The position numbers and the translations under genes were made by a program. DNA of 64,000 bases, taken from assembly GCA_963752525.1 (NCBI GenBank), contig CAVVYS010000025.1, positions 4,868 to 68,867 of the forward strand. Direction: 5' to 3'. Position 1 is the stretch's first letter. Each line of letters begins with the position of its first letter. This document shows, piece after piece, positions 8,204-31,120 of this stretch. The DNA is from an uncultured Bacteroidaceae bacterium (GTDB taxonomy: Bacteria > Bacteroidota > Bacteroidia > Bacteroidales > SM23-62). Under the pieces are notes generated by a model. The model was not told the DNA's origin. It was given only the letters and a program-made list of their open reading frames with translations, and did no database searches.

Positions 8204-9463
8204 ATGAGTAATTCTAGGGATAATTTCATAAAAACCATAAACCATCAGCAACCAGACCGGATTGTGGTGGATTTTGGAGGCACACCGACTTCAGGTATTC
8301 ATTGCCTGGCAGTTGAGAGACTGAGAGAGTATTACGGATTTGAGAAAAAACCGGTAAGGGTGATAGAACCCTTTCAAATGCTCGGTGAAGTGGATGCTGA
8401 CCTGGCTGAGGTTTTGGGCGTAGATGTTTACGGGGCCCTCGGTGAAGAAAACATGTTTGGCTTTTATAACCATGGCCCGTACAAGGAATTTAAAACCCAT
8501 TGGGGCCAGGTTGTCAGGGTACCTGAGAACTTCCATACCCAATTGGATGAAAATGGTGACCTGCTAATGTTCCCGAAGGGAGATATGACTGCCCCACCCT
8601 CTGCAAAGATGCCCCGTAGCGGTTATTTCTTTGATGCCATCATCCGCCAGGAACCCATTGATGAAGCCAGCCTTGATCCTGAGGATAACATGGAGGAGTT
8701 CAATGCAGTTACTGACAAAGACCTGGCATTCTGGGAAAAAGCTTCGAGGGAAGCAAGGAAAACGGGCAAGGCAGTGGCCGCTGCACTTGGAGGTACTGCG
8801 TTGGGAGATATTGCCCTGGTACCAGGCATGCAACTGAAAAATCCAAAAGGGATCAGGGACGTGGCGGAATGGTATATGAGCACCGTTATGCGTCCTGATT
8901 ATATAAAAACGATCTTTGAGAGGCAGATCGAATTGGCCATTCATAATTTCAGCCGGTATTATGAGGTGATCGGAGACAATATAGATGTGGTATTCATTTG
9001 CGGTACTGACTTTGGCACCCAGGATTCCACCTTTTGTTCCCCTGAACAGTTTGATGATATGTGGCTGCCCTATTACCGGAAAATCAATGACTGGATCCAT
9101 GAAAATACCCCATGGAAGAGTTTCAAGCATTCTTGCGGGGCAGTAAAATCTTTTATGCCAAAGTTCATTGAATCAGGCTTTGATATCATAAATCCGGTAC
9201 AGATCAATGCCACTGATATGGATCCTGCTGAACTTAAAAAGGAATTCGGTAGAGACCTGGTATTCTGGGGAGGGGGAATCGACACCCAGAAAACCCTGCC
9301 CTATGCCACACCAGATGAAATCAGGAAGGAAGTCCTGCGGCTCTGCGAAATCTTCGGCAAGGATGGAGGTTTTGTCTTTAATTCTGTCCACAATATTCAG
9401 GCTAATGTACCAGTGGAAAACATTGTAGCCGTAGTTGATGCGATAAAGGAATTTAACGGGTAA
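8204..9463 (+). CDS. uroporphyrinogen decarboxylase (URO-D) superfamily protein, MtaA/CmuA-like
   Basis: 419 aa with no signal peptide. The C-terminal half is typical of URO-D-like TIM barrels (FICGTDFGTQ, SFKHSCG, DIINPVQ, LVFWGGGIDTQ, GGFVFNSVHNIQ). Confidence 0.7.
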   Translation: MSNSRDNFIKTINHQQPDRIVVDFGGTPTSGIHCLAVERLREYYGFEKKPVRVIEPFQMLGEVDADLAEVLGVDVYGALGEENMFGFYNHGPYKEFKTHWGQVVRVPENFHTQLDENGDLLMFPKGDMTAPPSAKMPRSGYFFDAIIRQEPIDEASLDPEDNMEEFNAVTDKDLAFWEKASREARKTGKAVAAALGGTALGDIALVPGMQLKNPKGIRDVAEWYMSTVMRPDYIKTIFERQIELAIHNFSRYYEVIGDNIDVVFICGTDFGTQDSTFCSPEQFDDMWLPYYRKINDWIHENTPWKSFKHSCGAVKSFMPKFIESGFDIINPVQINATDMDPAELKKEFGRDLVFWGGGIDTQKTLPYATPDEIRKEVLRLCEIFGKDGGFVFNSVHNIQANVPVENIVAVVDAIKEFNG

Positions 9464-9526
9464 TTTTGCCTGCATACCGGTACCTGAAAAATCTGATCTG
9501 AATATTTTAGTATAACCATTTATATC

Positions 9527-10840
9527 ATGAAGCCTACATTTTTATTATCTGGTCTATCAATCCTATTCATTCTCTTTATTTTATGTTCACAATCTGTTAG
9601 CGGACAACAAAATAAATCTGTTAACCTCCGGGATTTTTATGATCCCGATTCTCCTACTGCCGGTCTTCAGGAAGCAGTGGACTATTTAAAACCGGATGGC
9701 GGAGAGATTTATGTACCTCCCGGAATCTACAAAATCAGAAGATCCATTGTTTTATATTCAGGAATATATGTTCGGGGATATGGCAATCATTCGATTATCG
9801 AACGCCTGGATTCCTGCATACAAATTCCACTTGTAAAGGATGGAAGAAAAGGAGATACAGAGATTAGACCAAAAGATATTTCAGGTTTTTTTATGGGAGG
9901 TGAAATAACTGTTTACAGTGACACATCATGGGGCTGGAATTGCAGCACTGCAGCCATTACAAACATTGAAGGCAAGAGTCTTATCATTGATACTCCCCTG
10001 AAACGTGATTTTTTACTGGAAGAAAATGGAATGATAATGAACTTCTTTCCTGTATTTACAGCAAGAAATGCTGAGAACATCAGGATAGAAAATATGGTGA
10101 TCGACGGGAAGATGAAACCCGGAAGTAATTATTATAATGAATTTGTAACTTCTGCCATCCATTTTCGAGATGTTTCAAATGTACATATTGAAAAAGTAAC
10201 CGTAAAAAATTATCCATCCGATGGTTTCAGCGTTCAGGGAGGGACTAATGCCTATGTAAGCAATTGTATAGCTGAATATAATCATGGCAATGGATTCCAT
10301 CCCGGAACAACGATAAATGAAAGTACCTGGATTAATAATGTAGGTCGCTATAATGGATGGGATGGTCTTTATTTCTGCTTTAATGTAAGGTATACCACCG
10401 TTTCAGGGAACCATTTTTACAAGAATGGGAAAAATGGAATAGGGGGACTTGGATGGGGAGGTGTTATGGGTGATCAAATGAATATTGTCGATGGAAATTA
10501 TTGTTATAAAAATGCAAAATCAGGAATAGAATGCACAACGGGCAAGAACAATATTATCGTCAACAATATCTGTGAGAATAATTCTCAGGAGGAAGCGGGG
10601 AAATGGCCGGGTATTTATTTGAATAACACCTCTTCCACCATAATTCGCGGCAATCGTTGCTGCAATTCACACCCGGAGGAATCCGGAAAAACACAAGCCT
10701 ACGGAATTCTTTTTTCCGGAGAATGTCTGCATAATGTGGTTACTGATAATATTCTCAGCGATCATTTGAAAAAAGGTATTGTTGGGGAAGATTTAGATAA
10801 TAATCTCATCGAAAACAATATAATTTTTAATAATAACTGA
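9527..10840 (+). CDS. exported right-handed parallel beta-helix protein (pectate-lyase-superfamily fold)
   Basis: It has a signal peptide. The N-terminal AGLQEAVDYLKPDGGEIYVPPGIYKI resembles Pectate_lyase_3-type starts. NxxxxN/G-rich coils repeat through the body (NGFHPG, NGWDGLYF, NGKNGIGG, KSGIECT, NNICENN). Confidence 0.65.
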   Translation: MKPTFLLSGLSILFILFILCSQSVSGQQNKSVNLRDFYDPDSPTAGLQEAVDYLKPDGGEIYVPPGIYKIRRSIVLYSGIYVRGYGNHSIIERLDSCIQIPLVKDGRKGDTEIRPKDISGFFMGGEITVYSDTSWGWNCSTAAITNIEGKSLIIDTPLKRDFLLEENGMIMNFFPVFTARNAENIRIENMVIDGKMKPGSNYYNEFVTSAIHFRDVSNVHIEKVTVKNYPSDGFSVQGGTNAYVSNCIAEYNHGNGFHPGTTINESTWINNVGRYNGWDGLYFCFNVRYTTVSGNHFYKNGKNGIGGLGWGGVMGDQMNIVDGNYCYKNAKSGIECTTGKNNIIVNNICENNSQEEAGKWPGIYLNNTSSTIIRGNRCCNSHPEESGKTQAYGILFSGECLHNVVTDNILSDHLKKGIVGEDLDNNLIENNIIFNNN

Positions 10841-10855
10841 ACCAAAATTAATAAT

Positions 10856-12151
10856 ATGAAGCGAAGAAACTTTATTGGAAAAACGGCTGCAGGAATGGCA
10901 GCACTGACTATTGTACCCCGGCATGTGCTCGGAGGTAAGGGTTTTATTGCCCCAAGTGACATGATAAACCTGGCGTACATCGGGCTGGGAAAACAATCCT
11001 ATCACCTTGTAAAGGAGATTACCAAATGCCCAGAAGCTGTAGCAGTGGCAGCGAGTGATGTTTTTGGTAAAAAGCTGGATCTCTTTCTGGATTTTGCCAA
11101 AGAACAAAACACAAAGAAAGGCATAGACAGTGAAATAAAGGCTTATCACTATTACCGTGAAATGCTGGAGCATCCGGATCTCGATGCAGTTGTGATAGCA
11201 ACACCAGACCACTGGCATGCTCAGATGGTTGTTGATGCTGCGAAAGCTGGTAAGGATATATACTGTGAAAAGCCTATGGCACTCACAGTAGCTGAGGGCC
11301 GGGCCATGGTAAATGCGACCCGCAAGTATGACAGGGTGTTTCAGACAGGAAACATGCAGCGCTCCTGGCGAGATTTCAGGCATGCTGTTGAACTGGTACG
11401 GAACGGTTATATTGGCGAGATAAATGAAATAAATGTCAGCGTTGGTGAGCCCGTACGCCAATGTGATCTTCCGACACAGGAAGTGCCAGCGTCGCTGGAC
11501 TGGGACGAATGGGTTGGCCCATCACTTTACAGGGGCTATCACGAGGACCTTGCCCCAAAAGTGGTAGATGGACCATGGGCCTGGTGGAGGGGCTACCGTG
11601 ATTTTGGGGGCGGACTCATCACAGACTGGGGTGCCCATATGTTTGATATTGCCCAGTGGGCACTTGAAATGGACGAGTCGGGTCCGGTTCAGTTCATTGC
11701 TCCGGAAGGATATGCCCAGAAAACCGGGGTGTCCATGATCTATGAAAATGGTGTAAGGGTTAACCATCAGCTATGGGGAGGAGAAGGCGATGGAAATGCC
11801 GTCCAGTTTATTGGTTCTGAAGGGAAAATCGAAGTCAGCCGGAACTTCCTGCGGACTTTCCCCGATGAAAAACTGGCCTCGGCTGACCTGAAAGAAAATG
11901 ATCAAAGAGTATATTTCAGCGACAATCATTACCAGGACTGGATAAATGCCATTAAGAAAAGAAACAAGCCAATCTCTGATGTGGAAACCGGTCATAGAAC
12001 CGCATCCGTCTGTAATCTGGTCAACATATGCTATGAACTGGAACGCCCCCTGCTCTGGGATCCTGAGAATGAAAAGTTCATAGGGGATGACTGGGCAGAT
12101 ATGATGTTGTCGCGTCCTTACCGGGGCAAATGGGATTTTACTGATTTCTAA
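10856..12151 (+). CDS. TAT-exported Gfo/Idh/MocA-family oxidoreductase (periplasmic glycoside/sugar dehydrogenase-like)
   Basis: Twin-arginine leader MKRRNFIGKTAAGMAALT. Rossmann region (LAYIGLGKQS), EKP motif (IYCEKPMA) and a 431-aa length are typical of exported GFO-type enzymes. Confidence 0.8.
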   Translation: MKRRNFIGKTAAGMAALTIVPRHVLGGKGFIAPSDMINLAYIGLGKQSYHLVKEITKCPEAVAVAASDVFGKKLDLFLDFAKEQNTKKGIDSEIKAYHYYREMLEHPDLDAVVIATPDHWHAQMVVDAAKAGKDIYCEKPMALTVAEGRAMVNATRKYDRVFQTGNMQRSWRDFRHAVELVRNGYIGEINEINVSVGEPVRQCDLPTQEVPASLDWDEWVGPSLYRGYHEDLAPKVVDGPWAWWRGYRDFGGGLITDWGAHMFDIAQWALEMDESGPVQFIAPEGYAQKTGVSMIYENGVRVNHQLWGGEGDGNAVQFIGSEGKIEVSRNFLRTFPDEKLASADLKENDQRVYFSDNHYQDWINAIKKRNKPISDVETGHRTASVCNLVNICYELERPLLWDPENEKFIGDDWADMMLSRPYRGKWDFTDF

Positions 12152-12177
12152 ACCGAAAAACCGATATTATAAAGTTT

Positions 12178-12927
12178 ATGAAATCCAAAAAAATCCTTAT
12201 CGTGGCAAGCCTTATTTTCCTGTTATTCTCATGCTCACAGAAAACTAAGCAAGAAACAGATCAGCTCACAGTGTCTCAGGAACCGATTATGAATTGCTTG
12301 AGCACCGAAGAAAAAAATGAGGGCTGGGAACTATTATTTGACGGTAAAACCACGATGGGCTGGAGGAAGTACAATGGCGAGGGTACCTCAGGCTGGGAGG
12401 TGTCGGATGCATGCCTTGTAGGATTGGGATTAGGAGGTGACAAAGGTGGAGACATTATTACGGTCAAACAGTTTGGGAATTTTATATTGACATGGGAATG
12501 GAAGCTTGGTCCGAACGGGAACAGCGGGGTCATGTACAATGCGCTGGAAGGGGAACAGTATAAGGTACCCTGGGAAACCGGACCGGAGTACCAGCTTATT
12601 GAAGACGAGGACTATGAAATTGTACTGGAGGACTGGCAAAAGACTGCTGCTGATTACGCTATGTATGCGGCATCTCCCGACAAGGTGCTGCACACACGTG
12701 ATTGGAATAAATCTATAATTATATATAATACTGAACATGTGGAGTACTGGCTGAATGGTAAAAGGGTTGTGCAATTCACCCCATGGAGTGAAGACTGGCA
12801 TCATCGGCGAACCACCGGAAAATTCAAGGATTATCCAGATTACGGCTCATCCAAAAAAGGACATATTGCCCTGCAGGATCATGGAAGCAAGGTATGGTTC
12901 CGGAATATAAAGATCAAGGAGTATTAG
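12178..12927 (+). CDS. DUF1080 (3-keto-disaccharide hydrolase family) lipoprotein
   Basis: Lipobox (LLFSCS). DUF1080-type motifs GWRKYNG...GWEV and a C-terminal GHIALQDHGSKVWFRNIKIKE. Confidence 0.8.
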   Translation: MKSKKILIVASLIFLLFSCSQKTKQETDQLTVSQEPIMNCLSTEEKNEGWELLFDGKTTMGWRKYNGEGTSGWEVSDACLVGLGLGGDKGGDIITVKQFGNFILTWEWKLGPNGNSGVMYNALEGEQYKVPWETGPEYQLIEDEDYEIVLEDWQKTAADYAMYAASPDKVLHTRDWNKSIIIYNTEHVEYWLNGKRVVQFTPWSEDWHHRRTTGKFKDYPDYGSSKKGHIALQDHGSKVWFRNIKIKEY

Positions 12928-12930
12928 CGT

Positions 12931-14529
12931 ATGAAAATAATAATACGAATCTTCCTGTTCACCATGGTATCGGCTGTTTATACCACGATATATTCACAGG
13001 GCAACAGCGAAATATTTAAAATAGAAACTTCTGTTCTCCCGGGTGAAAACTGGTGGGGAGGTAACATCGTAGATGGGCGAAAAATGCCTTTTGGCACAGC
13101 AGATTACCGGGTTGACCAGAACGGAAACCTTGGCACGAACCAGTCCCAGCCTCTCTTTGTGTCAGATAAGGGAAGGTTCATCTGGAGCGAGGAACCACTC
13201 GAAATCAGCTTCAGTGATGGTAACATAATTGTGGAGTCTTCTGCTGCAATTGTACTTAACGAGGATGGGGAAAATCTTCGAGATGCATATATCAAAGCAA
13301 GTAAAACATACTTCCCTGCTTCGGGTAAAATACCACATCCACTATTTTTTTCCAGGCCCCAATACAATACATGGATAGAGTTGCAGTACAACCAGAACGA
13401 GGAGGACATACTTAAATACGCTGCATCTATTGTTGGCAATGGTTTTCCCACCGGAATTATCATGATCGATGACAACTGGCAGAAGAACTACGGAGAATGG
13501 GATTTTTCATGTGAACGATTTAATGATCCCAGGGGTATGATAGACCTGCTTCATACAATGGGCTTCAAGGTCATGGTATGGGTATGTCCCTTTGTAGGGT
13601 CAGACACACCTACCTACAGGCAGCTTGCCAGAAGCAATAAGCTGATGTTCGCTACCCCAGAAAAAGTACAGCCGGCCATCGTAAAATGGTGGAATGGACA
13701 AAGCGCCATTATTGATCTCAGCAATCCTGAAGGGATGGATTGGTATAAAGCTCAGCTTCAGTATCTTATTGACGAATACGAGGTGGATGGTTTCAAACTG
13801 GATGCAGGGGATGCATTTTTCTATGAGGGTATTTTCGGACTGAAGGATATCAGCCAGAATGCTCATGCAGAGCTACACACGAGTATTGGACTCGAATTTG
13901 AATTCAATGAATACCGTGCCAGCTGGAAAATGGGAGGACAGCCACTTGTACAGCGGCTCAGGGACAAGGGGCATGATTGGGACGATCTTAATGCCCTGAT
14001 CCCCGATATGATCGCTCTTGGATTGATCGGTCATCCTTTCAGCTGTCCTGATATGATTGGTGGCGGAGAGGTTGGTTCCTTCTGGGAAAACCCGGATCTG
14101 GATGAAGAATTAATCGTTAGAGGCACGCAAGTCTCAGCACTTATGCCGATGATGCAATTCTCGGTTGCTCCATGGAGAATACTGGGTCCGGAGAACCTGG
14201 TGATCTGCCGGAATATGGCACAGCTTCATTACAAAATGGGAGATGAGATCCTTGCCTTGGCAAAGGAATCAGCCATTTCCGGAGAACCCATTATCCGATC
14301 CCTGGAATATGTTTACCCGGGACAGGGCTATGCCTCTATCAGTGACCAGTTCTTCCTTGGAGATGATATCCTGGTTACACCAGTAACTGCCAAAGGACTG
14401 CGAGAGAGAGTTGTTATTTTTCCAAAAGGAAAATGGAAAGGTGACGACGGAAGCATTGTCAAAGGTCCGGCAATAAAAACTATTCAGGTCCCCCTCGATA
14501 GACTTCCCTGGTACAGAAAGGTAAATTAA
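12931..14529 (+). CDS. glycoside hydrolase family 31-like alpha-glycosidase
   Basis: 532 aa with a signal peptide. IIMIDDNWQ and EVDGFKLDAGD resemble the GH31 nucleophile region (YicI VDCFKTDFGE). The subfamily is not assignable by eye. Confidence 0.55.
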   Translation: MKIIIRIFLFTMVSAVYTTIYSQGNSEIFKIETSVLPGENWWGGNIVDGRKMPFGTADYRVDQNGNLGTNQSQPLFVSDKGRFIWSEEPLEISFSDGNIIVESSAAIVLNEDGENLRDAYIKASKTYFPASGKIPHPLFFSRPQYNTWIELQYNQNEEDILKYAASIVGNGFPTGIIMIDDNWQKNYGEWDFSCERFNDPRGMIDLLHTMGFKVMVWVCPFVGSDTPTYRQLARSNKLMFATPEKVQPAIVKWWNGQSAIIDLSNPEGMDWYKAQLQYLIDEYEVDGFKLDAGDAFFYEGIFGLKDISQNAHAELHTSIGLEFEFNEYRASWKMGGQPLVQRLRDKGHDWDDLNALIPDMIALGLIGHPFSCPDMIGGGEVGSFWENPDLDEELIVRGTQVSALMPMMQFSVAPWRILGPENLVICRNMAQLHYKMGDEILALAKESAISGEPIIRSLEYVYPGQGYASISDQFFLGDDILVTPVTAKGLRERVVIFPKGKWKGDDGSIVKGPAIKTIQVPLDRLPWYRKVN

Positions 14530-16190: not shown

Positions 16191-17210
16191 TTATTGATAA
16201 TTCTTCTCATACCAGGCCTTTGCCTCTCCGGCCAGTTCAACAGCCTTAATCAGCCTTTCCCTGTTTTTCTCTTCAGTGCTGAACCAGGGTGACTGTATAA
16301 ATCCCAGCAATCTTTCGTCTTCAATATTTTCTGCGCAGAACTTTACATTTTCCATAATGTTCTCTTCTGTTCCATCATAGTAGTTACTGCCCCCTGGAAC
16401 CTGCTCATAACCAAGTGACTCCAGGGTTTGGTAGCCCTTCACTTCGATATTTGTATCAGGATTAAAATCAAGCCCGTTATACCAGTTGCTTTGAAGTACT
16501 GATTTGGGCATCATCCTGGCAAATATTTCAGGCCTATGTCTGACAAAATCCTGCCATACCCATGGCCGGGCCCCGTTTTTCATCACCTCCCCTATCAGGA
16601 AGTAAATATCACCCCAGTACAGATCATGTTGCCTTACTATGATCTGTTCATGCTCCCGCTGATTGCGTGCATTCTCCTCGTCCATCCCAAGATGAAACAG
16701 GCGTGGTTTCCCATAGATATCCATCACCTCGGCAATCAATTCTCTGCATACATCATAGTATCTATCCGTTGATACCATACGGGAATATTTTCCCAGCCAT
16801 GCATCATGGCAGGTAGAAAAATTCAGTTTGGGGATTGGTTCAAGCCCCATACCCCGGATCTTTTCCAGCTCTTTATGTAACCTTTCGGTAGACCAGGCAT
16901 TCCGGACAGCAATTTCCGGGTGGCTTTTATACACTATCGCATCCCCAAGATCCATTACCACCATGTTCATACCCACATCAACCATTTTCTCAAGGATATC
17001 GTTCCAAACCGAATCATCGAAGGGAAGGACCGGAGATTTTTCTTTCCACATATTCATGCTGATATGCAGCAGACAAGCCCATATCTTTTCAGTGTTCCCA
17101 TCTTGCTTTTTCATTGGCGGTAGATGCTGTTTTGACACAAGGCTGCCAGGTATCATACCCAGGAGCCCGGCTGCCGAAATCTGTCTTAAAAAATAACGTC
17201 GATTGCTCAT
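16191..17210 (-). CDS. TAT-exported TIM-barrel-like hydrolase candidate (GH20-like HxGxDE signature)
   Basis: Twin-arginine leader MSNRRYFLRQISAAGLLG. FHLGMDEE resembles the GH20 H-x-G-G-D-E acid/base motif. Length is 339 aa and the family is uncertain. Confidence 0.4.
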   Translation of the reverse strand: MSNRRYFLRQISAAGLLGMIPGSLVSKQHLPPMKKQDGNTEKIWACLLHISMNMWKEKSPVLPFDDSVWNDILEKMVDVGMNMVVMDLGDAIVYKSHPEIAVRNAWSTERLHKELEKIRGMGLEPIPKLNFSTCHDAWLGKYSRMVSTDRYYDVCRELIAEVMDIYGKPRLFHLGMDEENARNQREHEQIIVRQHDLYWGDIYFLIGEVMKNGARPWVWQDFVRHRPEIFARMMPKSVLQSNWYNGLDFNPDTNIEVKGYQTLESLGYEQVPGGSNYYDGTEENIMENVKFCAENIEDERLLGFIQSPWFSTEEKNRERLIKAVELAGEAKAWYEKNYQ

Positions 17211-18885: not shown

Positions 18886-19776
18886 TTAACAATCTGTGAT
18901 AACCGGAATGCTTTTACCATTATTAACCCTGTCCTGGAATTCAGTTGGTGTAATACTCTTGATTTTTTTGAACTGCCTGTTGAAATTCGAGATATTTTCA
19001 AATCCACAATCATAGGCAATCTCAGAGATGGTCAAAAAACCGTCAGTAAGGAGCCTGCAGGCATAGCCGACCCTTATCTTCAGTAAATAGCTTTTAAAGG
19101 ACATTCGGTATGTGGACTTAAAAGAAGCATAGAAGGCGGTATTGGACATGTTGGTGATTTCAAGAAGATCTTTGATCTCAATATGCTTCTGATAGTTTTG
19201 GAGAATAAAATCAAGTGCTTTACGCATCGGCTCATGGCCTTTAAGCATAACGGGTTCCAATGAAGTAGGACTGGAAAGGAAACGCTGATTCTCATAATCA
19301 GTGAGTGCCTGGAATATCATTAATAAACTGTATAAGCGTTCAGATGATCCCTGTTCCAGCATTTGGAGCATATGGTGTTTAATCCTGTTTTGGGATTCAT
19401 TACTTATCACAATTCCCCGTAATGAATTAGCCAGAACGTTTTTGAGAATGAAATTTTCCGGTAAATCAAAGAATTTTTTCCCCAAAAAATGATATAAAAA
19501 CTGTATCACGATGCCATCTCCCAAAAATCCTCCATCCTTTTTGAAATATTTTTGGTCACAAAGCCACTCATGGGGAAGATTTGGACCAATGAGGACCAGA
19601 TCATTTTCTTTAAACCGGTCGATATGATCTCCAACCATTCTTCTGCCCCGGCCCTTCCTTATCAGGACAAGCTCGTACTCCGGGTGGTAATGCCATCTTG
19701 TGAAAGGATTTCTTTCATGGTACAAAATAAATGAAGAGGTAGGTTCTTGAAGCAATCTGATCTCCTTTACTTTCAT
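18886..19776 (-). CDS. AraC-family transcriptional regulator (N-terminal cupin sensor + C-terminal HTH)
   Basis: 296 aa. The N-terminal WHYHPEYELVLI is a cupin-type motif. The C-terminal ISEIAYDCGFENISNFNRQFKKIKSITPTEF is an AraC HTH. Only 15 nt separate its stop from the next gene's start. Confidence 0.85.
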   Translation of the reverse strand: MKVKEIRLLQEPTSSFILYHERNPFTRWHYHPEYELVLIRKGRGRRMVGDHIDRFKENDLVLIGPNLPHEWLCDQKYFKKDGGFLGDGIVIQFLYHFLGKKFFDLPENFILKNVLANSLRGIVISNESQNRIKHHMLQMLEQGSSERLYSLLMIFQALTDYENQRFLSSPTSLEPVMLKGHEPMRKALDFILQNYQKHIEIKDLLEITNMSNTAFYASFKSTYRMSFKSYLLKIRVGYACRLLTDGFLTISEIAYDCGFENISNFNRQFKKIKSITPTEFQDRVNNGKSIPVITDC

Positions 19777-19936: not shown

Positions 19937-20239
19937 AATGGGGCAACCCCTGACAATGTAATGGTAACCGTAGCTGCCATTGAGGCGAACGCGGATATGG
20001 TTGTGGCTGACAGCATAGAACAATGTTTGGCCAGGGGTGAGATCTATAAGGCCATCCCAGCCGGTGATCTTAAAAAAGAAGGCCTTATCGAGCTTGGAAA
20101 TATTATCGGCGGCAAAGATAAAGGCAGGATTTCTGATCAACAGACCACGGTTACAGACCTGACCGGGGTGGCTGTCCAGGACATCAATATCGCCTCGCTG
20201 TATTCAGGGCATTTACCTCTTAAAAACCAAACAGGATAG
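19937..20239 (+). pseudogene. C-terminal relic of an ornithine cyclodeaminase/mu-crystallin family gene
   Basis: The frame opens directly after a stop at 19934-19936. GATPDNV...ADMVVADSIEQCLARGEI...TVTDLTGVAVQDINIA matches only the last ~100 aa of the family (GAD.PGK.E...VD....A...GE...F.S.G.A.QD). No Rossmann or N-terminal part lies upstream. Confidence 0.6.
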
Positions 20240-20254
20240 GGGTTCAGATTTTGA

Positions 20255-21187
20255 TTAATGCATTTCAGTTTCACAAACCCCAATGCCGTTCACATAGTAG
20301 TTAAACTGCACATTCGGATGGCCGGCGAGCAGGGACATAGGAACGGCCGAATCCATGATCTTTTTACTGATCATGAAAGCGGTTAATCTCTGTCCGAAGG
20401 GGTTATCATGTGTACCTGCCTGCCAGATGGATACCTTTTCGGCCTTCCATGTTTCCTGTGGACCCACAGTGATGGCCTGGGTCGGAATATTTGTCACTAC
20501 TCCCCCTCCGCTGGTCCTGGCATTCTGCATACAGGTTACGGGATGGAGATCCACTATCCTGGTACTCATCTTACGGTATTCCTCAGGAGAAGGTGGTTCA
20601 TCAGCATAAGCTCCCTCCCGTTTCAGGGGATCATTGAAAGCCCAGTGTTTAATATCTCCCTGACCACCCTGCATCACCATACAACGGACACCTTCATCAT
20701 AGCTTTTGCTGTAAATGCTGGTGTCGGCCTTTGGAAAATGCAGATTTTCTTCAGGCATTCTCAATTTCGGATTTATCCTTTCAAAACAAAGGTCCCGGTC
20801 GGCTTTCTCAAAGGAAAGAGGATGGGATGCATCCAGCTCTTTGCCATCCATGTACCATTCATCCATCCCCCAAAAATGGGCATTGGAAAGATCGAGTTCC
20901 AGTTCATTTACCAGCCTGGCTACCAGTGGGAGCTGTTCTGTGGGACCAATGGGTCCGCAAATCCCGGTAGGATTATCTGGGGTTGCCTGCTTCCAGGTGG
21001 TAATGTATTCCAGGGCTTCAGCCAGGTAAAAATCTTCCAGGGTATCATAAAACACGACCTTAAATCCGGGTCTTGAAAGCTGTTCCAGATCCTTGGCACT
21101 TAAACTGGCCACATCCTTCAGGAGGGCATCATCAAGGGTGGTAAAATCCCACCAGTCTTCTGCGAGCATACTTCTTTTTCTTGGCAT
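20255..21187 (-). CDS. glucosamine-6-phosphate deaminase/isomerase-like protein (NagB/6-phosphogluconolactonase superfamily)
   Basis: 310 aa with no signal peptide. The HFWGMDEW motif matches the NagB GxDE signature, and the N-terminal GICGPIGP is a phosphate-loop-like segment. Confidence 0.65.
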
Positions 21188-21217
21188 GACAATTATTTAT
21201 TTTTTGGTTAACATATC

Positions 21218-21970
21218 TTATTCAACTATTACCAGTTCTCCTAATACCTCACGGAGAATATTTGTTTGAGGAAAACCATGTCCGAGATGCTGGTTAAATC
21301 CTTCGGCATACTGTACACCGATCTCCTTGCCACGCATCTCCCCGCCCCGTTTCATGGACATTATGTATTCATCCATCTTGTGGTGAGACATAAGCCAGTT
21401 CCGCTGGCTGGCATGGCATGCAAGCATTTCTTCCTTGGTCTTGATAACTTCGGAAATATCCACCTTTATGGACATTGGGAGAATCTTGCCAAAACGATCC
21501 TTTCCTTCCATAGCGTCGCCATAATAGAGGTGGGGGACATGTTCACCTGGTGGTTCATCGACTTCCATGTTCTTCATCCCCGCTGCGAAACAGGCAGTCT
21601 GAACGATTCTGCTGCTCATCTCATGATCCACCATATAGCATTGAGGGCTATGTGTAAATACCAGGTCCGGCTTAACCCTCCGGATCAAACCAGTCGTCCG
21701 GTTCAGAGAATCCCGGTTGTATAAAATATATACATCCTCCAATTCCAGGCAATGATAGGTACCCTGCAAAATCTCCGCAGCCCTGGCGGATTCTGCCTTC
21801 CTGATCCTGCTGATCTCCTCCCGGGTATGTTCCGCAGTTCCTTTGTCCCCCGGGGCCAGGCTCGCTATATGAATGTCCCAGCCCTTTTCAGACAGATGTG
21901 CAAATGTACCGGTGCATAGAAATTCTGCATCATCCGGGTGTGCGAATATACCCAATACCGTTTTGTTCAT
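21218..21970 (-). CDS. PIG-L/LmbE-family N-acetyl-sugar deacetylase
   Basis: GIFAHPDDAEF is the zinc-binding AHPDD motif of the family. 250 aa, cytoplasmic. Confidence 0.85.
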   Translation of the reverse strand: MNKTVLGIFAHPDDAEFLCTGTFAHLSEKGWDIHIASLAPGDKGTAEHTREEISRIRKAESARAAEILQGTYHCLELEDVYILYNRDSLNRTTGLIRRVKPDLVFTHSPQCYMVDHEMSSRIVQTACFAAGMKNMEVDEPPGEHVPHLYYGDAMEGKDRFGKILPMSIKVDISEVIKTKEEMLACHASQRNWLMSHHKMDEYIMSMKRGGEMRGKEIGVQYAEGFNQHLGHGFPQTNILREVLGELVIVE

Positions 21971-21979
21971 TTTGTTCTC

Positions 21980-23026
21980 TTAGCTTATTTGAATGGCTTT
22001 CCATGTTTTTGCAGACTCATAGCAGGCCGCCAGAATCTTTTGGTTGCGGACACCTATAGCTGCACTGTTAAGAGGCTTCCTGCCCTCAAGGATAGCATTA
22101 CTGAATTCCACGATCTCTGCCATATAGGTATTTACCGGTTCGGGACTGATGTTTAAAACATCTCCATCAGCTCTTTCCTGTTGTGCATCGTATCCGGCCG
22201 GAGCATTTTGAAGGGTGGCTTTCATTTCCCCTGCAGGTCCCTGGCCAATAGTCATATCAGCAAGGATGCTACCCTGTGAACCGTAGAGCTCAAGGCTGTT
22301 TCTAACGGAGTTATCAGGAACATTGAAAAGGTTGTCAACCGTTGCTATGGCCCCGTTCTTAAAGTAGAGCATGGCCACAGCGCTGTCTTCAGATTTATAG
22401 CCATGTACCTGGGTATTGGTAAAACAGCTAACCCGGTCAATCTCACCGAAAAACATTTCCAGCAGGTCAATGCAATGGCTGCCCATGTCCATGAGTGAGC
22501 CTCCTCCACCCAACTCGGGATCCTGCCTCCAGGCTCCATCCATAGGGGGATACCAGCAGGAAAGCTGTCCCCTTGCATAAACGGGTTTCCCGATGGCACC
22601 CTGTGCTATAAGTTTCAGGGCTTCCTTGTGCTGCTCAACAAACCTCATCATAAGGGCAGTGCCAAGAAGTACTTCTGCTGATTCACATGCACTTGCCATT
22701 TCTTCAGCTTCCTCAACATCGAGACCGAGAGGTTTTTCGCAAAGTATATGCTTCCCGGCTCTGGCACAGGCTACCACATGCTCCAGATGCTTGTTCACAG
22801 GTGAGGCTATGTATACAGCATCAATATCACTATCAAGGAGTTCTTCAATACTATTGGCAGCCGTGACGCCGATCTCATCAGCAACTTCTTTGTTTACGAC
22901 CGGATTCAGATCATATACTACCTGCAGGTCTGCATTTTCTGCAGGCACGATTCCCTCTGGGATGGTTCTTCTCCTGGCGATACCACCTGAGCCTATAACC
23001 CCCCATTTAATCTTTTTACTATCCAT
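21980..23026 (-). CDS. Gfo/Idh/MocA-family NAD(P)-dependent oxidoreductase (cytoplasmic)
   Basis: IKWGVIGSGGIARR Rossmann start and ILCEKPLG (EKP motif). 348 aa. Confidence 0.85.
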   Translation of the reverse strand: MDSKKIKWGVIGSGGIARRRTIPEGIVPAENADLQVVYDLNPVVNKEVADEIGVTAANSIEELLDSDIDAVYIASPVNKHLEHVVACARAGKHILCEKPLGLDVEEAEEMASACESAEVLLGTALMMRFVEQHKEALKLIAQGAIGKPVYARGQLSCWYPPMDGAWRQDPELGGGGSLMDMGSHCIDLLEMFFGEIDRVSCFTNTQVHGYKSEDSAVAMLYFKNGAIATVDNLFNVPDNSVRNSLELYGSQGSILADMTIGQGPAGEMKATLQNAPAGYDAQQERADGDVLNISPEPVNTYMAEIVEFSNAILEGRKPLNSAAIGVRNQKILAACYESAKTWKAIQIS

Positions 23027-23037
23027 ATGCTATAAAA

Positions 23038-24312
23038 TTATTTTGAGTATGCTAGTATAACCTTTCTAATGGCATCACCAATCTGTTCGCAATCCTCTTC
23101 CGTGAAGGTGGGGAAAGCAAAACAGGTAAAGGTATGGTCCTCATGCCATTTGGCATTGGGTACATCAACCTTTGAATAATCCACTGATGAAGGATTGGTA
23201 AATTCTTTCGAAACGAAAGGGAACCCACTGTTACCAAATGCATTGTGCTGCTGGAAGGCTCCTTCTGAATGGCATTGTGGCCAGAATACCTTCCATACCG
23301 GTGCGCCTTCAGCGGTAACTGCTTCCACAAACTCCCTGATATCACAGTTCATATTCTCAACATCAAGGGTGAAAGCCATAACAAACCAGCCGTTCCTTCT
23401 CTCATCCGTATCAATCGGAGTAAACAATACCTGTGGCATGTCCTTGATCTTGTCAATGATAATATGTGCATTTTTACGCCTGGTTGGCATATTCCAGTCA
23501 TCAATGCGTTCCAGCTCAGCCAGTCCGATGGCAGACTGCATTTCTGTCATTCTGTAATTCCATCCTACCATATTATGGATATAAGGTAGTTTCTGCTCTA
23601 GCTCAAGCAGACTGATGCGCTGTTTCACATCATAGCCATGATCTCTGAAACTCCTGGCAATCCAGGCAAAATCTTCATTATCCGTGGTAACCATTCCACC
23701 TTCCCCTCCTGTTGTGAATGTTTTGTTTTGGCAAAAACTACAGCCGGCTATATCACCAAGTGTACCTGTTTTTTTCCCATTGAAGGAACCGCCGTACGCT
23801 TCGGCATTGTCTTCAATAACAAAGAGATTGTGTTTTTTAGCAAATCTATTGACCTTGTCCATATCGCATACATTACCATAAAGGTGCACGGGCATGATGG
23901 CTTTGGTACGTTCATTAACGAGTTTCTCTGCCGACTCAACACTGATGCAATGGTCATCCTTGTTCACATCTGCAAAACGGGGAATGGCACCGGCCTGGAC
24001 TACAGAAAAACTGGAGGCAATGAAAGTATAGCTTGGTACGATCACCTCATCACCCGGTCCTATACCCAAGGATACCAGTCCCACATGAAGCGCAGCCGTA
24101 CCGGTAGCCACACTGATGGCATACTTGCTACCCTGCCATTCGGCAAACTTTTTCTCAAATTCCATTCCCCTGGGACCCGTCCAGTAATTTACCTTACCGG
24201 AATCCAGCACATCCTGTACAGCCTTTTTGGCTTTTTCATCGAAATTTGGCCAGCCTACCAATGCATTAGTCACTGCTTTCTGGCCACCTTTAATTGCTAA
24301 TTTTTCAGACAT
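23038..24312 (-). CDS. DegT/DnrJ/EryC1/StrS-family PLP-dependent sugar aminotransferase
   Basis: 424 aa. SFCQNKTFTTGGEGGM carries the family's PLP-lysine motif (SF..K....GEGG). An N-terminal YWTGP segment is also present. Confidence 0.85.
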   Translation of the reverse strand: MSEKLAIKGGQKAVTNALVGWPNFDEKAKKAVQDVLDSGKVNYWTGPRGMEFEKKFAEWQGSKYAISVATGTAALHVGLVSLGIGPGDEVIVPSYTFIASSFSVVQAGAIPRFADVNKDDHCISVESAEKLVNERTKAIMPVHLYGNVCDMDKVNRFAKKHNLFVIEDNAEAYGGSFNGKKTGTLGDIAGCSFCQNKTFTTGGEGGMVTTDNEDFAWIARSFRDHGYDVKQRISLLELEQKLPYIHNMVGWNYRMTEMQSAIGLAELERIDDWNMPTRRKNAHIIIDKIKDMPQVLFTPIDTDERRNGWFVMAFTLDVENMNCDIREFVEAVTAEGAPVWKVFWPQCHSEGAFQQHNAFGNSGFPFVSKEFTNPSSVDYSKVDVPNAKWHEDHTFTCFAFPTFTEEDCEQIGDAIRKVILAYSK

Positions 24313-24509
24313 AATTTATTCGAATTTTTATCGTGATTTGAAATTGAATTCTTTGAACCTCCAATGTTTTCTATAATCATGTTCAAATACAAAATTAATC
24401 TTATAAGCACAGCCTCCATAGTACTTTTCTACGGTTTCCTGATATTTAAAGTCTTAATATTGCTGCCCGGGCATTTCATAGGTTAATACTAATCATTCAC
24501 TTGATTGTA

Positions 24510-25583
24510 TTAATACCCCCCCTTCATGGAGCTGAGTAAGGATGATGCCGACCAGAGGAGTGCTGCCTGTCCGTGTGGATCTCCGGTCAGCCGGGGACGG
24601 TTCAGGTACCATTCACGGTCACCATAGCTTGTGCCGGCACAAACGTCCATGATCCTCCATTCCTCATCAATGTATTTCGATAAACCCTGCCAACCTTTCT
24701 CCACAGTATTGATATATGGTGTTGAAGGCAACAGGCCATACCTGATCCCCTCAATCATGGAAAACAAAAACATGCAGGTGCAGGATGACTCGGGCCAGCT
24801 TTCCTGATCATCGATTAGCTGATACCACATGCCTTCAGGACCCTGATATTTCACCAGGGCTTCCATCATCCTGTAATAATATGATAATACAAGATCTCGC
24901 TTCGGATGATCTACCGGCATAACATTCAGGAGTTCAACATAAGCAGCTGCACACCAACCGTTACCCCTTCCCCAGAAATGGGGAGCCTGTTCTACATTGT
25001 GGTAGAAAAGCCCTTCCTCCTGCATGAATTCTTCAGAATAAAACAATACCTGCTGAACAGCCCTATCAAGGTAAGTATCATCATCTGTACATGCATATGC
25101 CAGTGATTGCATGGCCGTGGCACCATATATATCATCGATATACATCCGGGAAGTGTAGGCTGGCATGCCGTTCTCATTCGGGTTAAAGAATTGTTCCTCA
25201 GCCATCTCTATCCCTCTCTTCAGGTAAGCTGGATTTTCTGTTTGCCTGTAGAGTTCCAGCGGAACAAAACCAAACCACTGATGGGGTGGATAGTCCCTTG
25301 CATTGTCCCTGTGCGGATTGACACCTTCGAGCAACTCTGGTTTAAACACTCTTTCGACCACCTCCCTCAGTGAATCCTTCCCGGTTGCAGCAGCGACTTT
25401 CAAAATTCCATAGGCTGCGCACATATTATGATAACCCATGCCATCCAGATTATTATCAAGGGACCATATAGCTGATTTCAGGGCTACTTCTTCAATTTCG
25501 TCCAGGTCAGCTTGTTTATTTCCAGAACAGGCAGAAACAGTGGCCAGGATAATCAAAATCAACCAGGTTGTAGTTTTTTTCAT
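24510..25583 (-). CDS. GH88/GH105-family unsaturated uronyl hydrolase, lipoprotein
   Basis: Lipobox (ATVSAC). YIDDIYG (catalytic Asp region) and WGRGNGWCAAAYVELL (family WxRxNGW motif). Confidence 0.8.
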   Translation of the reverse strand: MKKTTTWLILIILATVSACSGNKQADLDEIEEVALKSAIWSLDNNLDGMGYHNMCAAYGILKVAAATGKDSLREVVERVFKPELLEGVNPHRDNARDYPPHQWFGFVPLELYRQTENPAYLKRGIEMAEEQFFNPNENGMPAYTSRMYIDDIYGATAMQSLAYACTDDDTYLDRAVQQVLFYSEEFMQEEGLFYHNVEQAPHFWGRGNGWCAAAYVELLNVMPVDHPKRDLVLSYYYRMMEALVKYQGPEGMWYQLIDDQESWPESSCTCMFLFSMIEGIRYGLLPSTPYINTVEKGWQGLSKYIDEEWRIMDVCAGTSYGDREWYLNRPRLTGDPHGQAALLWSASSLLSSMKGGY

Positions 25584-26887: not shown

Positions 26888-27064
26888 ATTTTTTTGTCCT
26901 TTCAATAGCATACATTTCTTTCCAGAAATATACAAATCGAATTAAAAGTACTAAATCAATATTTAAGATCACAGGCAGGTAATATACAATCCTTGCATTA
27001 TTTGTATTTTGTACCTGAGAACAAATTAAATCCCATTCACTGCACAGTGATATTGAATAAAAAA

Positions 27065-28237
27065 ATGAAAGGAAAAGAACGGTTCAAAAAAGTATTTCAG
27101 GGTGAAATGCCTGACAGAGTACCCGTAACTCTTTTTATTGTTGAACAGGGACATTTTATCACCCAAATCTACCCTGATATTGATCCGTCTGACTACAAAA
27201 CGATGCAATTAAAAATAGTTGAATTTCAGAAAGAACTAGGTTGTGATGTTTTTATCCGTTTGGTTTTTGGAATCAATAATCCCATTTCTATACATTATGG
27301 AGGATTAAAAACAGATGTACAGTCAGAGAACTGGGAGGTAAAAACAAGCAGATCGAATAATGGAAACACCACCATCTATCATTCTGAAATAAGAACACCG
27401 GAAGGGTGCTTGACGCAGGATTTTTCCACTTTTGAATTGCGCCCGGGAACATTTATTTATTCATGCACAGATGCTCCAATTAAAACGCAAAAAGACCTAG
27501 ACCTGGCCATTAAATATGAACCAAAAATGGATCCTGCTTACCCCAATCAAATCAAAGAATGGTTAAAGGATATTGAAGAAGCAGTTGGAGATGATGGAAT
27601 TATTGGCTCATGGTCACCCCACGGCCCATTCAATAATGCTTCCATGTTAATTAATCAGAAAGATTTATACAGTCTTTTTCTTGCTGATTTTGATTTCTAT
27701 GACAGGCTGATGAATTTTGCCATGCATAGAGTATTGCCTTATGCAAGGGCCATAGAGGAAGCGGGTTTTGATGTTCAATGCGTTGGCGGGAATGTTCCTG
27801 GAGGCTTTTTAGGAAAGGATATATATGAAAACTATATCCTACCATATGAAAGAAGATACATAGATATTTTACAGCGAAAAGGAACTCCGGCAATGTATCA
27901 CAACTGCGGAGAAATCATGAACCTCATATCTTCTTATAAAAAGCTTGGAGTAAAAATAGTTGAGCCTTTTTCTCCTCCCCCACTGGGTGATGCGGATCTG
28001 AAAAAGGCCAAAGAAATGGTTGGGAAGGATTATGTTATATTGGGCGGGGTGGATCAGGTAAATGTTTTACAAAAAGGAACGCCCCGCCAAATCAGTGAGC
28101 AAACACGCAGAACAATGAATATTGGAAAGCCCGGAGGGAACTTTATTATTCAGTCTGCTGATTTTCTGGAATACGGAACCCCTGTAAAAAATGTTCGATC
28201 TTTTGTCAATACTGCCATTGAAGAAGCATGGTACTAA
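27065..28237 (+). CDS. URO-D superfamily protein, second copy
   Basis: The start is placed at MKGKERFKKVFQGEMPDRVPV, a typical URO-D-like N-terminus. The C-terminal MYHNCGE, VEPFSPPPLGD, ILGGVDQ and GGNFIIQSAD fit the fold. Confidence 0.7.
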   Translation: MKGKERFKKVFQGEMPDRVPVTLFIVEQGHFITQIYPDIDPSDYKTMQLKIVEFQKELGCDVFIRLVFGINNPISIHYGGLKTDVQSENWEVKTSRSNNGNTTIYHSEIRTPEGCLTQDFSTFELRPGTFIYSCTDAPIKTQKDLDLAIKYEPKMDPAYPNQIKEWLKDIEEAVGDDGIIGSWSPHGPFNNASMLINQKDLYSLFLADFDFYDRLMNFAMHRVLPYARAIEEAGFDVQCVGGNVPGGFLGKDIYENYILPYERRYIDILQRKGTPAMYHNCGEIMNLISSYKKLGVKIVEPFSPPPLGDADLKKAKEMVGKDYVILGGVDQVNVLQKGTPRQISEQTRRTMNIGKPGGNFIIQSADFLEYGTPVKNVRSFVNTAIEEAWY

Positions 28238-29698: not shown

Positions 29699-31120
29699 AT
29701 GAAATATAGTGGTAAATTATTGATCCTGGCAGGAGTTCTTGGAATCTTCGCCATACAATCATGCAATGTCGAATCACCAAATGCCAAAGGCGGATTAATG
29801 GTTGGCATTGCTGAAGTGAACTACACACCTGACGTCGGACTGGATATTGTCGGCAACTACCGGGGAGATGATTATGCTTCCAGGGGCATACACGATTCCC
29901 TCTATGCACGGGCTTTTGTTGCCAGGGGCGAAAACGGCGTTGAAGCTGCAGTCCTTACCGTTGATATTGCGGTCTTTAATAAAGAGACGACAAATTATAT
30001 GAGGGAGTATATTGAATCAAAGACCGGAATTGAGAAAAACAACATCATGATCCTTGCCACCCATACCCATAGCGGTCCCAAGTCAGACCTGTCAGCGCCC
30101 AAGGCCAAGGAATATCTCCTGAAGGCAGCGGATGCCGTTGTCAGGGCCCATGAAAACCTGGCCCCATCCGTTCTATATGCAGGTCGCAGCAAAGAAGACA
30201 GGATCTCCCATAACCGCCGGCTAAAAGCCAAAGATGGTACAACTCATATGACCTGGGAAGGTATGGATCCGGATCTGATTGAGGGTTCCTGGGGGACAAA
30301 AGATCCTGAGGTAATTACTTTTACCATAAACCAGGATGGTAAAGATATTGGTTCCATTGTCAATTTCGGTTGTCACGTAACCACCCTGACCGGCAGCAAC
30401 TGGTTATGGTCAGCCGATTTTCCCGGCTACATGGTAGAATGCATCAGAAAAGTCAAAGGTGAGGATTATCTCCCATTGTTTTTCAACGGGCCATGTGGTA
30501 ATGTCACACAAATTGACAATGAGGTTGGATTCCTGGATACTTACCAGGAAGCGCAGCGAATCGGATACCTGTTAGGCGTAGGTGCCCTTGAGGCCATCCA
30601 AAACCAAAGGCCGGTTGAAGGCGGAGATGTTCTTGTTTCTCAGGAGTTTGTACCGCTGAAAAGGATTACCATTACAAATGAGCAGCTTGCCTGGGCCGAG
30701 AAAGTTATGGAAAGGGTCGCAAGGGAAGGCATGCCGCCCATTCAGCAGGATGGCATTCCAGATGAAATGTATGCCCAGAACTGGATAAAAATGCGCGAGA
30801 TTCAGGATCAGGTAGACAGCCTTGAGCTCCAGGTTATCCGTGTCGGAGAATTGGCATTTGTGGGACTGACAGGGGAACCTTTCAATGAGTTCGGTGTGGA
30901 TATCAAGGCAAAATCACCCTCTCCGTTCACCATGGTTATGGGAAATGCCAATGACCGTACCAGGTATTTCCCGACCAGGGTATCTTTTACACAGGGACCC
31001 GAAGGATATACTCCTTATATTACAGGATATGAGACAAATCCCGGATCGACCATATATGAGATCGGTGCGGGGGAGACCATGGCTGCGGCCGCAGTCAAAC
31101 AACTTGAGGACCTGTTTTAA
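29699..31120 (+). CDS. neutral/alkaline ceramidase-like amidohydrolase, lipoprotein (copy 1)
   Basis: Lipobox (AIQSC). GIHDSLYARAFV and ILATHTHSGP match the N-terminal zinc-site motifs of neutral ceramidase-type proteins. 473 aa. Confidence 0.55.
   Translation: MKYSGKLLILAGVLGIFAIQSCNVESPNAKGGLMVGIAEVNYTPDVGLDIVGNYRGDDYASRGIHDSLYARAFVARGENGVEAAVLTVDIAVFNKETTNYMREYIESKTGIEKNNIMILATHTHSGPKSDLSAPKAKEYLLKAADAVVRAHENLAPSVLYAGRSKEDRISHNRRLKAKDGTTHMTWEGMDPDLIEGSWGTKDPEVITFTINQDGKDIGSIVNFGCHVTTLTGSNWLWSADFPGYMVECIRKVKGEDYLPLFFNGPCGNVTQIDNEVGFLDTYQEAQRIGYLLGVGALEAIQNQRPVEGGDVLVSQEFVPLKRITITNEQLAWAEKVMERVAREGMPPIQQDGIPDEMYAQNWIKMREIQDQVDSLELQVIRVGELAFVGLTGEPFNEFGVDIKAKSPSPFTMVMGNANDRTRYFPTRVSFTQGPEGYTPYITGYETNPGSTIYEIGAGETMAAAAVKQLEDLF

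Follow-up and report, generated by a model that had tools for sequence, protein, structure and literature searches.

A four-gene cassette of an uncultured Bacteroidaceae bacterium joins two separately conserved gene pairs, DegT-GFO and PIG-L-NagB-like, with a predicted role in amino-sugar catabolism

The DNA analyzed here is a stretch of 64,000 nucleotides (nt), below called the window, that covers positions 4,868 to 68,867 of contig CAVVYS010000025.1 (assembly GCA_963752525.1; 6.5 Mb in 27 contigs) from an uncultured Bacteroidaceae bacterium. Its minus strand carries a cassette of four genes that follow one another with gaps of 11, 9 and 30 nt. In the direction of transcription, they code for a DegT/DnrJ/EryC1/StrS-family aminotransferase dependent on pyridoxal 5′-phosphate (PLP) (DegT, 424 amino acids (aa), 24312..23038), a Gfo/Idh/MocA-type NAD(P)-dependent sugar oxidoreductase (GFO, 348 aa, 23026..21980), a zinc N-deacetylase of the PIG-L/LmbE family (PIG-L, 250 aa, 21970..21218) and a divergent NagB-fold protein, a putative deaminating aldose-ketose isomerase (NagB-like, 310 aa, 21187..20255). 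None of the four products has a signal peptide-like N-terminus, and the cassette is cytoplasmic. The original prediction, made from the sequence alone, had described four tightly packed signal-less genes of these families, and this description held: Pfam returned the same assignments for DegT, GFO and PIG-L, and a family profile and a structure model did so for the NagB-like protein.

The prediction also took the four genes for one four-step unit. We found instead that the cassette is a lineage-specific juxtaposition of two gene pairs, A (DegT and GFO) and B (PIG-L and NagB-like), which are separable, mostly lie apart and are each conserved independently. Sediment and soil metagenomes are rich in both pairs: a search centered on the NagB-like protein matched at least 575 genome stretches, and one centered on DegT matched at least 598 metagenome stretches (contigs), the best 80 of each being analyzed. 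In the genome set, NagB-like orthologues are 73-84% identical across phyla, and pair B is carried by Bacteroidota, Planctomycetota (Phycisphaerae, Sedimentisphaerales and Pirellulales), Verrucomicrobiota and others. In 47 of 70 genome loci, across phyla, the gene immediately upstream of the NagB-like one codes for PIG-L; an orthologous GFO (ca. 64% identity) is present in about 10 loci of this set and a DegT orthologue in a few Bacteroidales loci only. In the metagenome set, DegT orthologues are 77-86% identical and are directly followed by an orthologous GFO (59-67% identity) in 45 of 68 loci. PIG-L and NagB-like genes come next in ca. 16-18 of these loci, and a URO-D-like gene with a second GFO gene (GFO2) does so in ca. 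21. Both pairs are unusually conserved, with 74-86% identity between Bacteroidota and Planctomycetota. About 20 independent loci share the full order DegT-GFO-PIG-L-NagB-like, which is therefore not a chance arrangement.

Among 41 relatives, the NagB-like orthologue was detected in eight genomes and the DegT orthologue in seven, in the same genomes and at the same loci; the cassette of the eighth relative is interrupted by a contig end. Every relative that carries a DegT orthologue (7/7) thus also carries a NagB-like one. The relatives keep the four-gene order, and the flanks vary even within a genus. Since an even sample of 400 Bacteroidota genomes contained the NagB-like orthologue in four cases and the DegT orthologue in none, the full cassette is a patchy accessory unit. 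Pair B is present without a DegT orthologue in four Bacteroidota genomes that are 99-100% complete. In three Planctomycetota genomes, DegT and NagB-like orthologues (75-78% identity) are both present and lie at least 1.8 Mb apart, DegT again adjoining GFO and ceramidase-like genes.

Such a distribution raises the question of whether A and B act on the same compound. They might process two different amino sugars from the same glycan class and be merely co-located in one lineage, one substrate being a 3- or 4-amino-deoxy sugar from which ceramidase-like amidases have removed the N-acyl group and the other an N-acetylhexosamine (HexNAc). Each module mostly occurs without the other at the same locus, the two are unlinked in Planctomycetota, and A has partners of its own (ceramidase-like genes upstream, URO-D-like and GFO2 genes downstream), all of which speak for two substrates. 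We consider this rather unlikely in view of the tight, order-conserved cassette in about 20 loci, the presence of B in seven of seven related genomes with A and the retention in DegT of a glutamine expected to bind an acetamido group (see below). Separately, we note that the commonest alternative to PIG-L and NagB-like genes after DegT-GFO is the gene of a 356-aa URO-D-like protein (L120:6338-7408 and ca. 20 other metagenome loci) together with the second GFO. The window itself contains two URO-D-like genes (8204-9463 and 26993-28237).

DegT matches PF01041 at 320.3 bits (cut-off 19.8). About 52% of its positions are at least 95% invariant in an alignment of 66 orthologues, and orthologues from relatives, metagenomes and Planctomycetota are 77-87% identical. 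The Schiff-base lysine Lys197 and Gln195 sit in an SFCQNK motif that is conserved in the same 66 proteins. When DegT is aligned with perosamine synthetase and Pcryo_0638, Lys197 coincides with their PLP lysine; by this alignment, DegT has the lysine of an aminotransferase rather than the histidine of ColD/E1 dehydratases. The best match in the PDB, over residues 14-288, is Pcryo_0638 (7L7X; 3.5e-70), a C4 aminotransferase of UDP-4-keto-6-deoxy-N-acetylglucosamine (UDP, uridine diphosphate) (PMC8040287). As judged by eye from the alignment, about half of 275 residues of DegT are identical to those of Pcryo_0638, which like PglE is a C4 aminotransferase of bacillosamine biosynthesis, and the Schiff-base lysine, the Trp-Pro cis-peptide turn and the acetamido-binding glutamine are common to DegT and Pcryo_0638. 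The glutamine in question, Gln195, aligns with Gln183 of Pcryo_0638, the residue that makes a hydrogen bond to the C2′ acetamido group (PMC8040287). Because it is conserved in DegT, transamination before deacetylation appears likelier than the originally predicted order, in which deacetylation came first.

Pcryo_0638 differs from DegT in being biosynthetic and binding UDP; DegT stands in a catabolic gene context. In the alignment, Lys215 and Tyr229, which contact UDP in Pcryo_0638, are replaced by Tyr227 and Leu, respectively, and the C-terminal third, with the further UDP contact Phe335, cannot be aligned. Since the UDP-contact residues are not conserved, DegT would be expected to act on a free sugar rather than on a nucleotide sugar. 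It also falls below the NCBIfam equivalog cut-offs of nucleotide-sugar aminotransferases (PseC, LegC, ArnB, RfbH, WecE and DesI), its best scores being 226 against 420 for LegC and 222 against 423.5 for PseC. Far behind its best PDB matches come WbpE (4e-42) and, ranked about 39th, NtdA (4e-37). The likeness to NtdA and NtdC put forward in the original prediction thus stands at the level of the family and goes no further, with some 38 other aminotransferases in the PDB ahead of NtdA and with another enzyme nearest to GFO. There is also another DegT lineage (34% identity to the window DegT), in which SFHSLK replaces SFCQNK (L026:10977-12287, L033:18187-19494 and L106:4870-6180); it too adjoins GFO-PIG-L-NagB-like units, which in that case start with an EamA transporter gene.

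GFO contains the Pfam domains PF01408 (86.9 bits), PF22725 (115.9 bits) and PF02894 (93.5 bits), with the motifs GxGxxA at residues 12-17, EKP at 97-99 and D180-x3-H184. Its best PDB match is 1,5-anhydro-D-fructose reductase (2glx, 3e-36), a keto-sugar reductase (2glx, 4koa) that shares with GFO the EKP lysine and the Asp-x3-His motif; the similarity is at the family level only, and the reductase uses a 2-keto anhydro sugar in another pathway. Against the model of inositol 2-dehydrogenase IolG (TIGR04380), GFO scores 135.9 bits, under the cut-off of 355. The PIG-L protein matches PF02585 at 90.5 bits (cut-off 28.2) and carries the zinc-binding and catalytic motif AHPDD at residues 10-14 and a distal His116; with 116.1 bits, it stays under the 182.5-bit cut-off of the bacillithiol deacetylase BshB1 (TIGR04001).

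IolG is the top NCBIfam match of GFO (1.4e-39), and DegT matches 2-deoxy-scyllo-inosose and scyllo-inositol aminotransferases (1e-58 to 1e-53). One may therefore think of the catabolism of aminocyclitols or of glucosaminyl-inositol, with DegT as an inosamine:2-oxo-acid aminotransferase, GFO as an inositol/inosose dehydrogenase, as in rhizopine (MocA-type) catabolism, and PIG-L acting on a conjugate of the N-acetylglucosamine (GlcNAc)-inositol type. Characterized PIG-L members do act on GlcNAc-inositol, GlcNAc-phosphatidylinositol or GlcNAc-malate; moreover, the PfkB kinase found as a partner is nearest to IolC, TIM-barrel partners weakly match IolE and IolO, and a KduI/IolB-family gene lies within the window. 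All the supporting scores are, however, far under equivalog cut-offs, and no other iol genes cluster with the cassette. The nearest solved relative of DegT is a hexose C4 aminotransferase, and a NagB-type enzyme next to a GH20-like (glycoside hydrolase family 20) protein points to aldose amino sugars, which makes the aminocyclitol explanation improbable.

The NagB-like protein has no Pfam match and scores 27.4 bits (2e-6) against the nagB model TIGR00502 of NCBIfam, whose cut-off is 236.9. A search for distant relatives returned almost exclusively fragments or frameshifted pieces of one tight cluster. The family profile matches glucosamine 6-phosphate deaminases of solved structure (E ca. 5e-15). 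An AlphaFold (AF2) model (mean predicted local distance difference test score, pLDDT, 85.7), when compared by Foldseek with NagB structures, gave E values from 7e-16 to 5e-14 and target-normalized TM-scores of 0.71-0.83. By this model, the fourth cassette protein has a NagB fold. Its MDE motif at 108-110 (D109), H181 and D186 align with E. coli Asp72, His143 and Glu148, the AFN(D/E)P motif is kept, and an N-terminal extension of ca. 40 residues is added.

In the same comparison, 6-phosphogluconolactonases ranked below NagB (E 1e-9 or worse). As these lactonases have the same fold, an oxidative route can also be drawn, in which GFO would oxidize C1 of a free hexosamine to a lactone, a NagB/Pgl-fold lactonase would give an aminoaldonate, the PLP enzyme would remove the amine to leave a 2-keto-3-deoxy acid and a PfkB kinase of the 2-keto-3-deoxygluconate type would follow. 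PfkB kinases are indeed recurrent, and relatives of GFO include aldose 1-dehydrogenases (D-xylose 1-dehydrogenase and aldose-aldose oxidoreductase). We nonetheless find this route quite improbable: the model is closer to deaminases than to lactonases (E 1e-15 versus 1e-9), the NagB-type MDE and AFN(D/E)P motifs are retained, DegT has the aminotransferase lysine and not the histidine of dehydratase members, and the core pair B usually occurs without orthologous GFO and DegT.

The main phosphate-binding lysine of NagB is K194 in Streptococcus mutans and K208 in E. coli (PMC8369159). In the NagB-like protein, it is replaced by Thr236, and no aligned member has a conserved Lys or Arg at this position or close to it. 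The TGGTP loop of NagB becomes GPIGPT, shorter by two residues, and of the 6-phosphate clamp only Arg210 (E. coli Arg172) is retained. Because the phosphate lysine is lost and the anion loop shortened, the NagB-like enzyme probably takes a sugar that has no 6-phosphate.

Pair B resembles the NagA/NagB route, where deacetylation is likewise followed by deaminating isomerization, and its NagB-like member keeps the fold, the MDE motif, the histidine and AFN(D/E)P. It differs in that its deacetylase belongs to the PIG-L/LmbE family while NagA is an amidohydrolase, and in that the deaminase-like protein has lost the phosphate lysine, has a shortened anion loop and an extended N-terminus and reaches 27 instead of 237 bits against nagB. 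A PIG-L-family deacetylase also serves amino-sugar catabolism in the archaeal chitin pathway (diacetylchitobiose deacetylase Dac of Thermococcales, whose structures match the cassette PIG-L at ca. 4e-9). PIG-L and NagB-like domains are coupled in the NagB-LmbE fusion (PRK02122, NF002557), a single family model of 653 residues; in the cassette, the two are separate genes, and the NagB-like protein matches PRK02122 at 1e-4 only. None of the Dac and PRK02122 relatives is paired with DegT and GFO. The genome that contains the window also has a second, distant NagB-like gene (26% identity; nagB 2e-18) at locus L100 (G000:C1:204000-223999; genes 8291-10207, 10250-11149 and 11146-12252). On one side it has the gene of a FAD_oxidored protein (638 aa), on the other that of a PfkB kinase (368 aa), an arrangement that mirrors a FAD_oxidored/NagB-like/PfkB set of Planctomycetota.

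We tallied the families of 117 proteins that flank 20 full cassettes. Ceramidase_alk (18), SSF (7), GFO (6) and PfkB (5) were followed by MFS and AA_permease (4 each) and by URO-D and AraC (3 each). No glycosyltransferase or nucleotidyltransferase family was found among the top 25 families of these neighbors or in annotated recurrent clusters, and no acetyltransferase or flippase was found among the recurrent cassette neighbors. Since glycosyltransferases and nucleotidyltransferases do not recur and importers, kinases, secreted hydrolases and AraC regulators do, both pairs sit in catabolic rather than biosynthetic contexts, and a catabolic role, as originally predicted, is supported.

The same tally bears on the opposite proposal, that the cassette serves the synthesis of an unusual amino sugar or aminocyclitol destined for a surface glycan or a secondary metabolite. 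The characterized close relatives of DegT are all biosynthetic, and GFO and DegT enzymes are known as pairs from biosynthesis (WbpB/WbpE, GnnA/GnnB and NtdC/NtdA). These pairs come from the same two families and oxidize, then transaminate, whereas the cassette would run in reverse; they also differ from it in acting on UDP-sugars or glucose 6-phosphate in biosynthetic clusters. Neither the cassette nor its recurrent neighbors include a phosphatase, such as NtdB of the kanosamine system NtdABC. With importers, kinases, secreted hydrolases and AraC as recurrent neighbors in place of the glycosyltransferases, nucleotidyltransferases, acetyltransferases and flippases of a biosynthetic cluster, and with UDP-contact residues not conserved in DegT, we give biosynthesis hardly any weight.

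Three genes near the cassette in the window belong to the recurrent neighbor set. The first, downstream of the cassette, codes for an AraC-family regulator (18886..19776, minus strand; HTH_18 and AraC_binding domains), orthologues of which (49-60% identity) adjoin the modules or ceramidase-like operons in L022, L023, L026, L033, L105, L117, L123, L125-L127 and L130. The second, farther downstream, codes for a 339-aa protein with a twin-arginine translocation (TAT) signal and without a Pfam match (16191..17210, minus strand); its orthologues (47-52% identity) adjoin the cassette in L029, L031, L032, L039, L101, L105 and L117. Its AF2 model (pLDDT 70) matches GH20 hexosaminidases (E 1e-9, TM-score ca. 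0.6), and an HLGMDEE motif, invariant in six homologues, resembles the H-x-G-x-D-E catalytic signature of GH20. Judging from this model, the TAT-exported protein is probably a divergent β-N-acetylhexosaminidase. The third is the gene at 29.7 kb of a 473-aa neutral-ceramidase-like lipoprotein (29699..31120, plus strand; PF04734, 4.9e-16), which matches the neutral ceramidases 4wgk (3e-9) and 2zws (1e-7) in the PDB. The ceramidase-like family occupies position -1 or -2 relative to DegT in 20 places and is present in 29 of 80 loci.

The gene upstream of the cassette codes for a GH88/GH105-family lipoprotein (24510..25583, minus strand; PF07470, 192 bits; lipoprotein-type N-terminus), and the product of the gene before it has a TAT signal. 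The hydrolase gene on which the original prediction had drawn for the catabolic setting is therefore present, at a distance of 197 nt, and its adjacency is specific to this genome: neither it nor the gene of the upstream TAT protein was ever found beside the cassette in the other loci examined, the same genus included. The 197-nt spacer (24313..24509) contains a box resembling the Bacteroidota -7 element, TAATTTTG, at 24397..24390 on the minus strand. As this motif was found 49 times in the window with 49 expected, i.e., without enrichment, the box ahead of DegT is only a hint that the cassette may have its own promoter. A scan for σ70 promoters and terminators likewise gave 15 sites against 15 expected and was uninformative. 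On the other side, the space between cassette and AraC gene holds a 92-aa open reading frame (ORF; 19961-20239, plus strand), which marks the downstream boundary of the cassette.

Elsewhere, Maribellus, Mariniphaga and Dysgonamonadaceae carry the full cassette within long co-directional operons together with several ceramidase-like proteins, a GH20-like protein, SSF, PfkB, TAT-exported GFO and TIM-barrel proteins and a mannitol-dehydrogenase-like enzyme. Some other loci feature GH20 hexosaminidases, a sulfatase resembling N-sulfoglucosamine sulfohydrolase and EamA, MFS or amino-acid-permease transporters. In Planctomycetota, the pair B operon includes a large FAD_oxidored/F5-8C protein, a xylose-isomerase-like TIM barrel, a 402-aa PfkB kinase, a DUF4432 protein and a mannitol-1-phosphate-dehydrogenase-like protein. 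The first of these, a protein of ca. 1177 aa with FAD_oxidored (PF12831) and F5/8 type C domains, is encoded at L064:2988-6521 and in 18 other Planctomycetota loci, upstream of pair B: two to four genes ahead of the NagB-like gene, i.e., one to three before the PIG-L/NagB-like pair.

For module B, we weighed and rejected an amino-uronate (Ashwell-type) pathway, the partner from the mannitol dehydrogenase family being nearest to mannitol-1-phosphate dehydrogenase and not to fructuronate or tagaturonate reductase, and the PfkB partner not being KdgK-like. At locus L181 (G000:C18:244000-263999, ca. 9368-13003), a homologue of the operon PfkB is spread over three frames, with one TAG and one TGA as the interruptions; the next gene, mannitol-1-phosphate-dehydrogenase-like, is fused with a sulfatase in one ORF, and a nearby sulfatase is in three pieces. 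These broken genes look like assembly indel errors rather than real decay.

As a general statement, we consider it very probable that the cassette and its pairs perform catabolic removal of amines. Our preferred, though tentative, reading, to which we grant just short of an even chance, is that A converts its substrate to a plain 2-acetamido sugar and B deacetylates and deaminates that same sugar. The GH20-like hexosaminidase and secreted ceramidase-like N-deacylases would release the substrate outside the cytoplasm, and SSF, MFS or APC transporters would import it, under the AraC regulator. DegT, with its PLP-binding lysine, would transfer an amino group other than that at C2 (i.e., at C4 or C3) from the free 2-acetamido sugar to a 2-oxo acid, and GFO would use NAD(P)H to reduce the keto sugar so formed, leaving an ordinary 2-acetamido sugar. 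PIG-L would then take off the N-acetyl group, and the NagB-fold enzyme would open the ring and carry out a deaminating aldose-ketose isomerization to a ketose and ammonium. PfkB kinases, whose genes come after the NagB-like gene in many operons, may phosphorylate the ketose afterwards. Where a genome is without A, B alone would process a plain 2-acetamido sugar. That A feeds B is indicated by the seven of seven DegT carriers with a NagB-like orthologue and by the recurrent four-gene order. With family assignments, catalytic motifs, conservation, modularity and gene context as observed, we infer the direction and order of the reactions, their substrate and the absence of phosphate.

Candidate substrates would be bacillosamine- or AAT-type sugars and 6-deoxy-HexNAc sugars. 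In its most specific form, the proposal is a cross-phylum catabolic route for N-acylated di-amino or deoxy-amino envelope sugars (e.g., bacillosamine-type 2-acetamido-4-amino-2,4,6-trideoxyhexoses), in which DegT and GFO would reverse nucleotide-sugar chemistry on free sugars and a NagB-fold enzyme would deaminate a hexosamine without a 6-phosphate; with all these particulars included, it is possible but doubtful.

Several observations weigh against the reading in which A feeds B and no phosphate is involved. The majority of DegT-GFO loci carry URO-D-like and GFO2 genes and not module B, these loci being metagenome contigs and not whole genomes. The Planctomycetota genomes tested for A had been picked for having B, which biases the count of co-occurrence. 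Similarity of DegT to other enzymes cannot reveal regiochemistry, its best relatives in NCBIfam and the PDB being nucleotide-sugar or inosose aminotransferases. In the NagB-like protein, Asp141, another of the catalytic residues of E. coli NagB, corresponds to Ile179, with Asp178 one position off. Arg210 is invariant in the NagB-like family and could still bind a phosphate, a carboxylate or a sulfate. Thr also occupies the K208 position in human GNPDA1, so that loss of the lysine is not decisive. Finally, the analysis revealed no aldolase or other clear exit step, and the model does not account for the MtlD-like, DUF4432 and xylose-isomerase-like partners of module B.

A literature search retrieved no paper on the cassette or on either of its two modules, and the statement of the original prediction that no such catabolic route is established agrees with our finding no published one. 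To our knowledge, neither pair A nor pair B has a characterized member. If the proposal is true, the two pairs are how anaerobic glycan degraders regain the carbon and nitrogen that microbial necromass holds in unusual amino sugars, which the canonical NagA/NagB route is unable to take. It would give DegT enzymes, so far treated as biosynthetic, their first catabolic role, and the NagB family, so far phosphate-dependent, its first phosphate-independent member. The recurrent secreted partners, i.e., ceramidase-fold amidases and the TAT-exported GH20-like protein, are candidate new carbohydrate-active enzymes for the same substrate.

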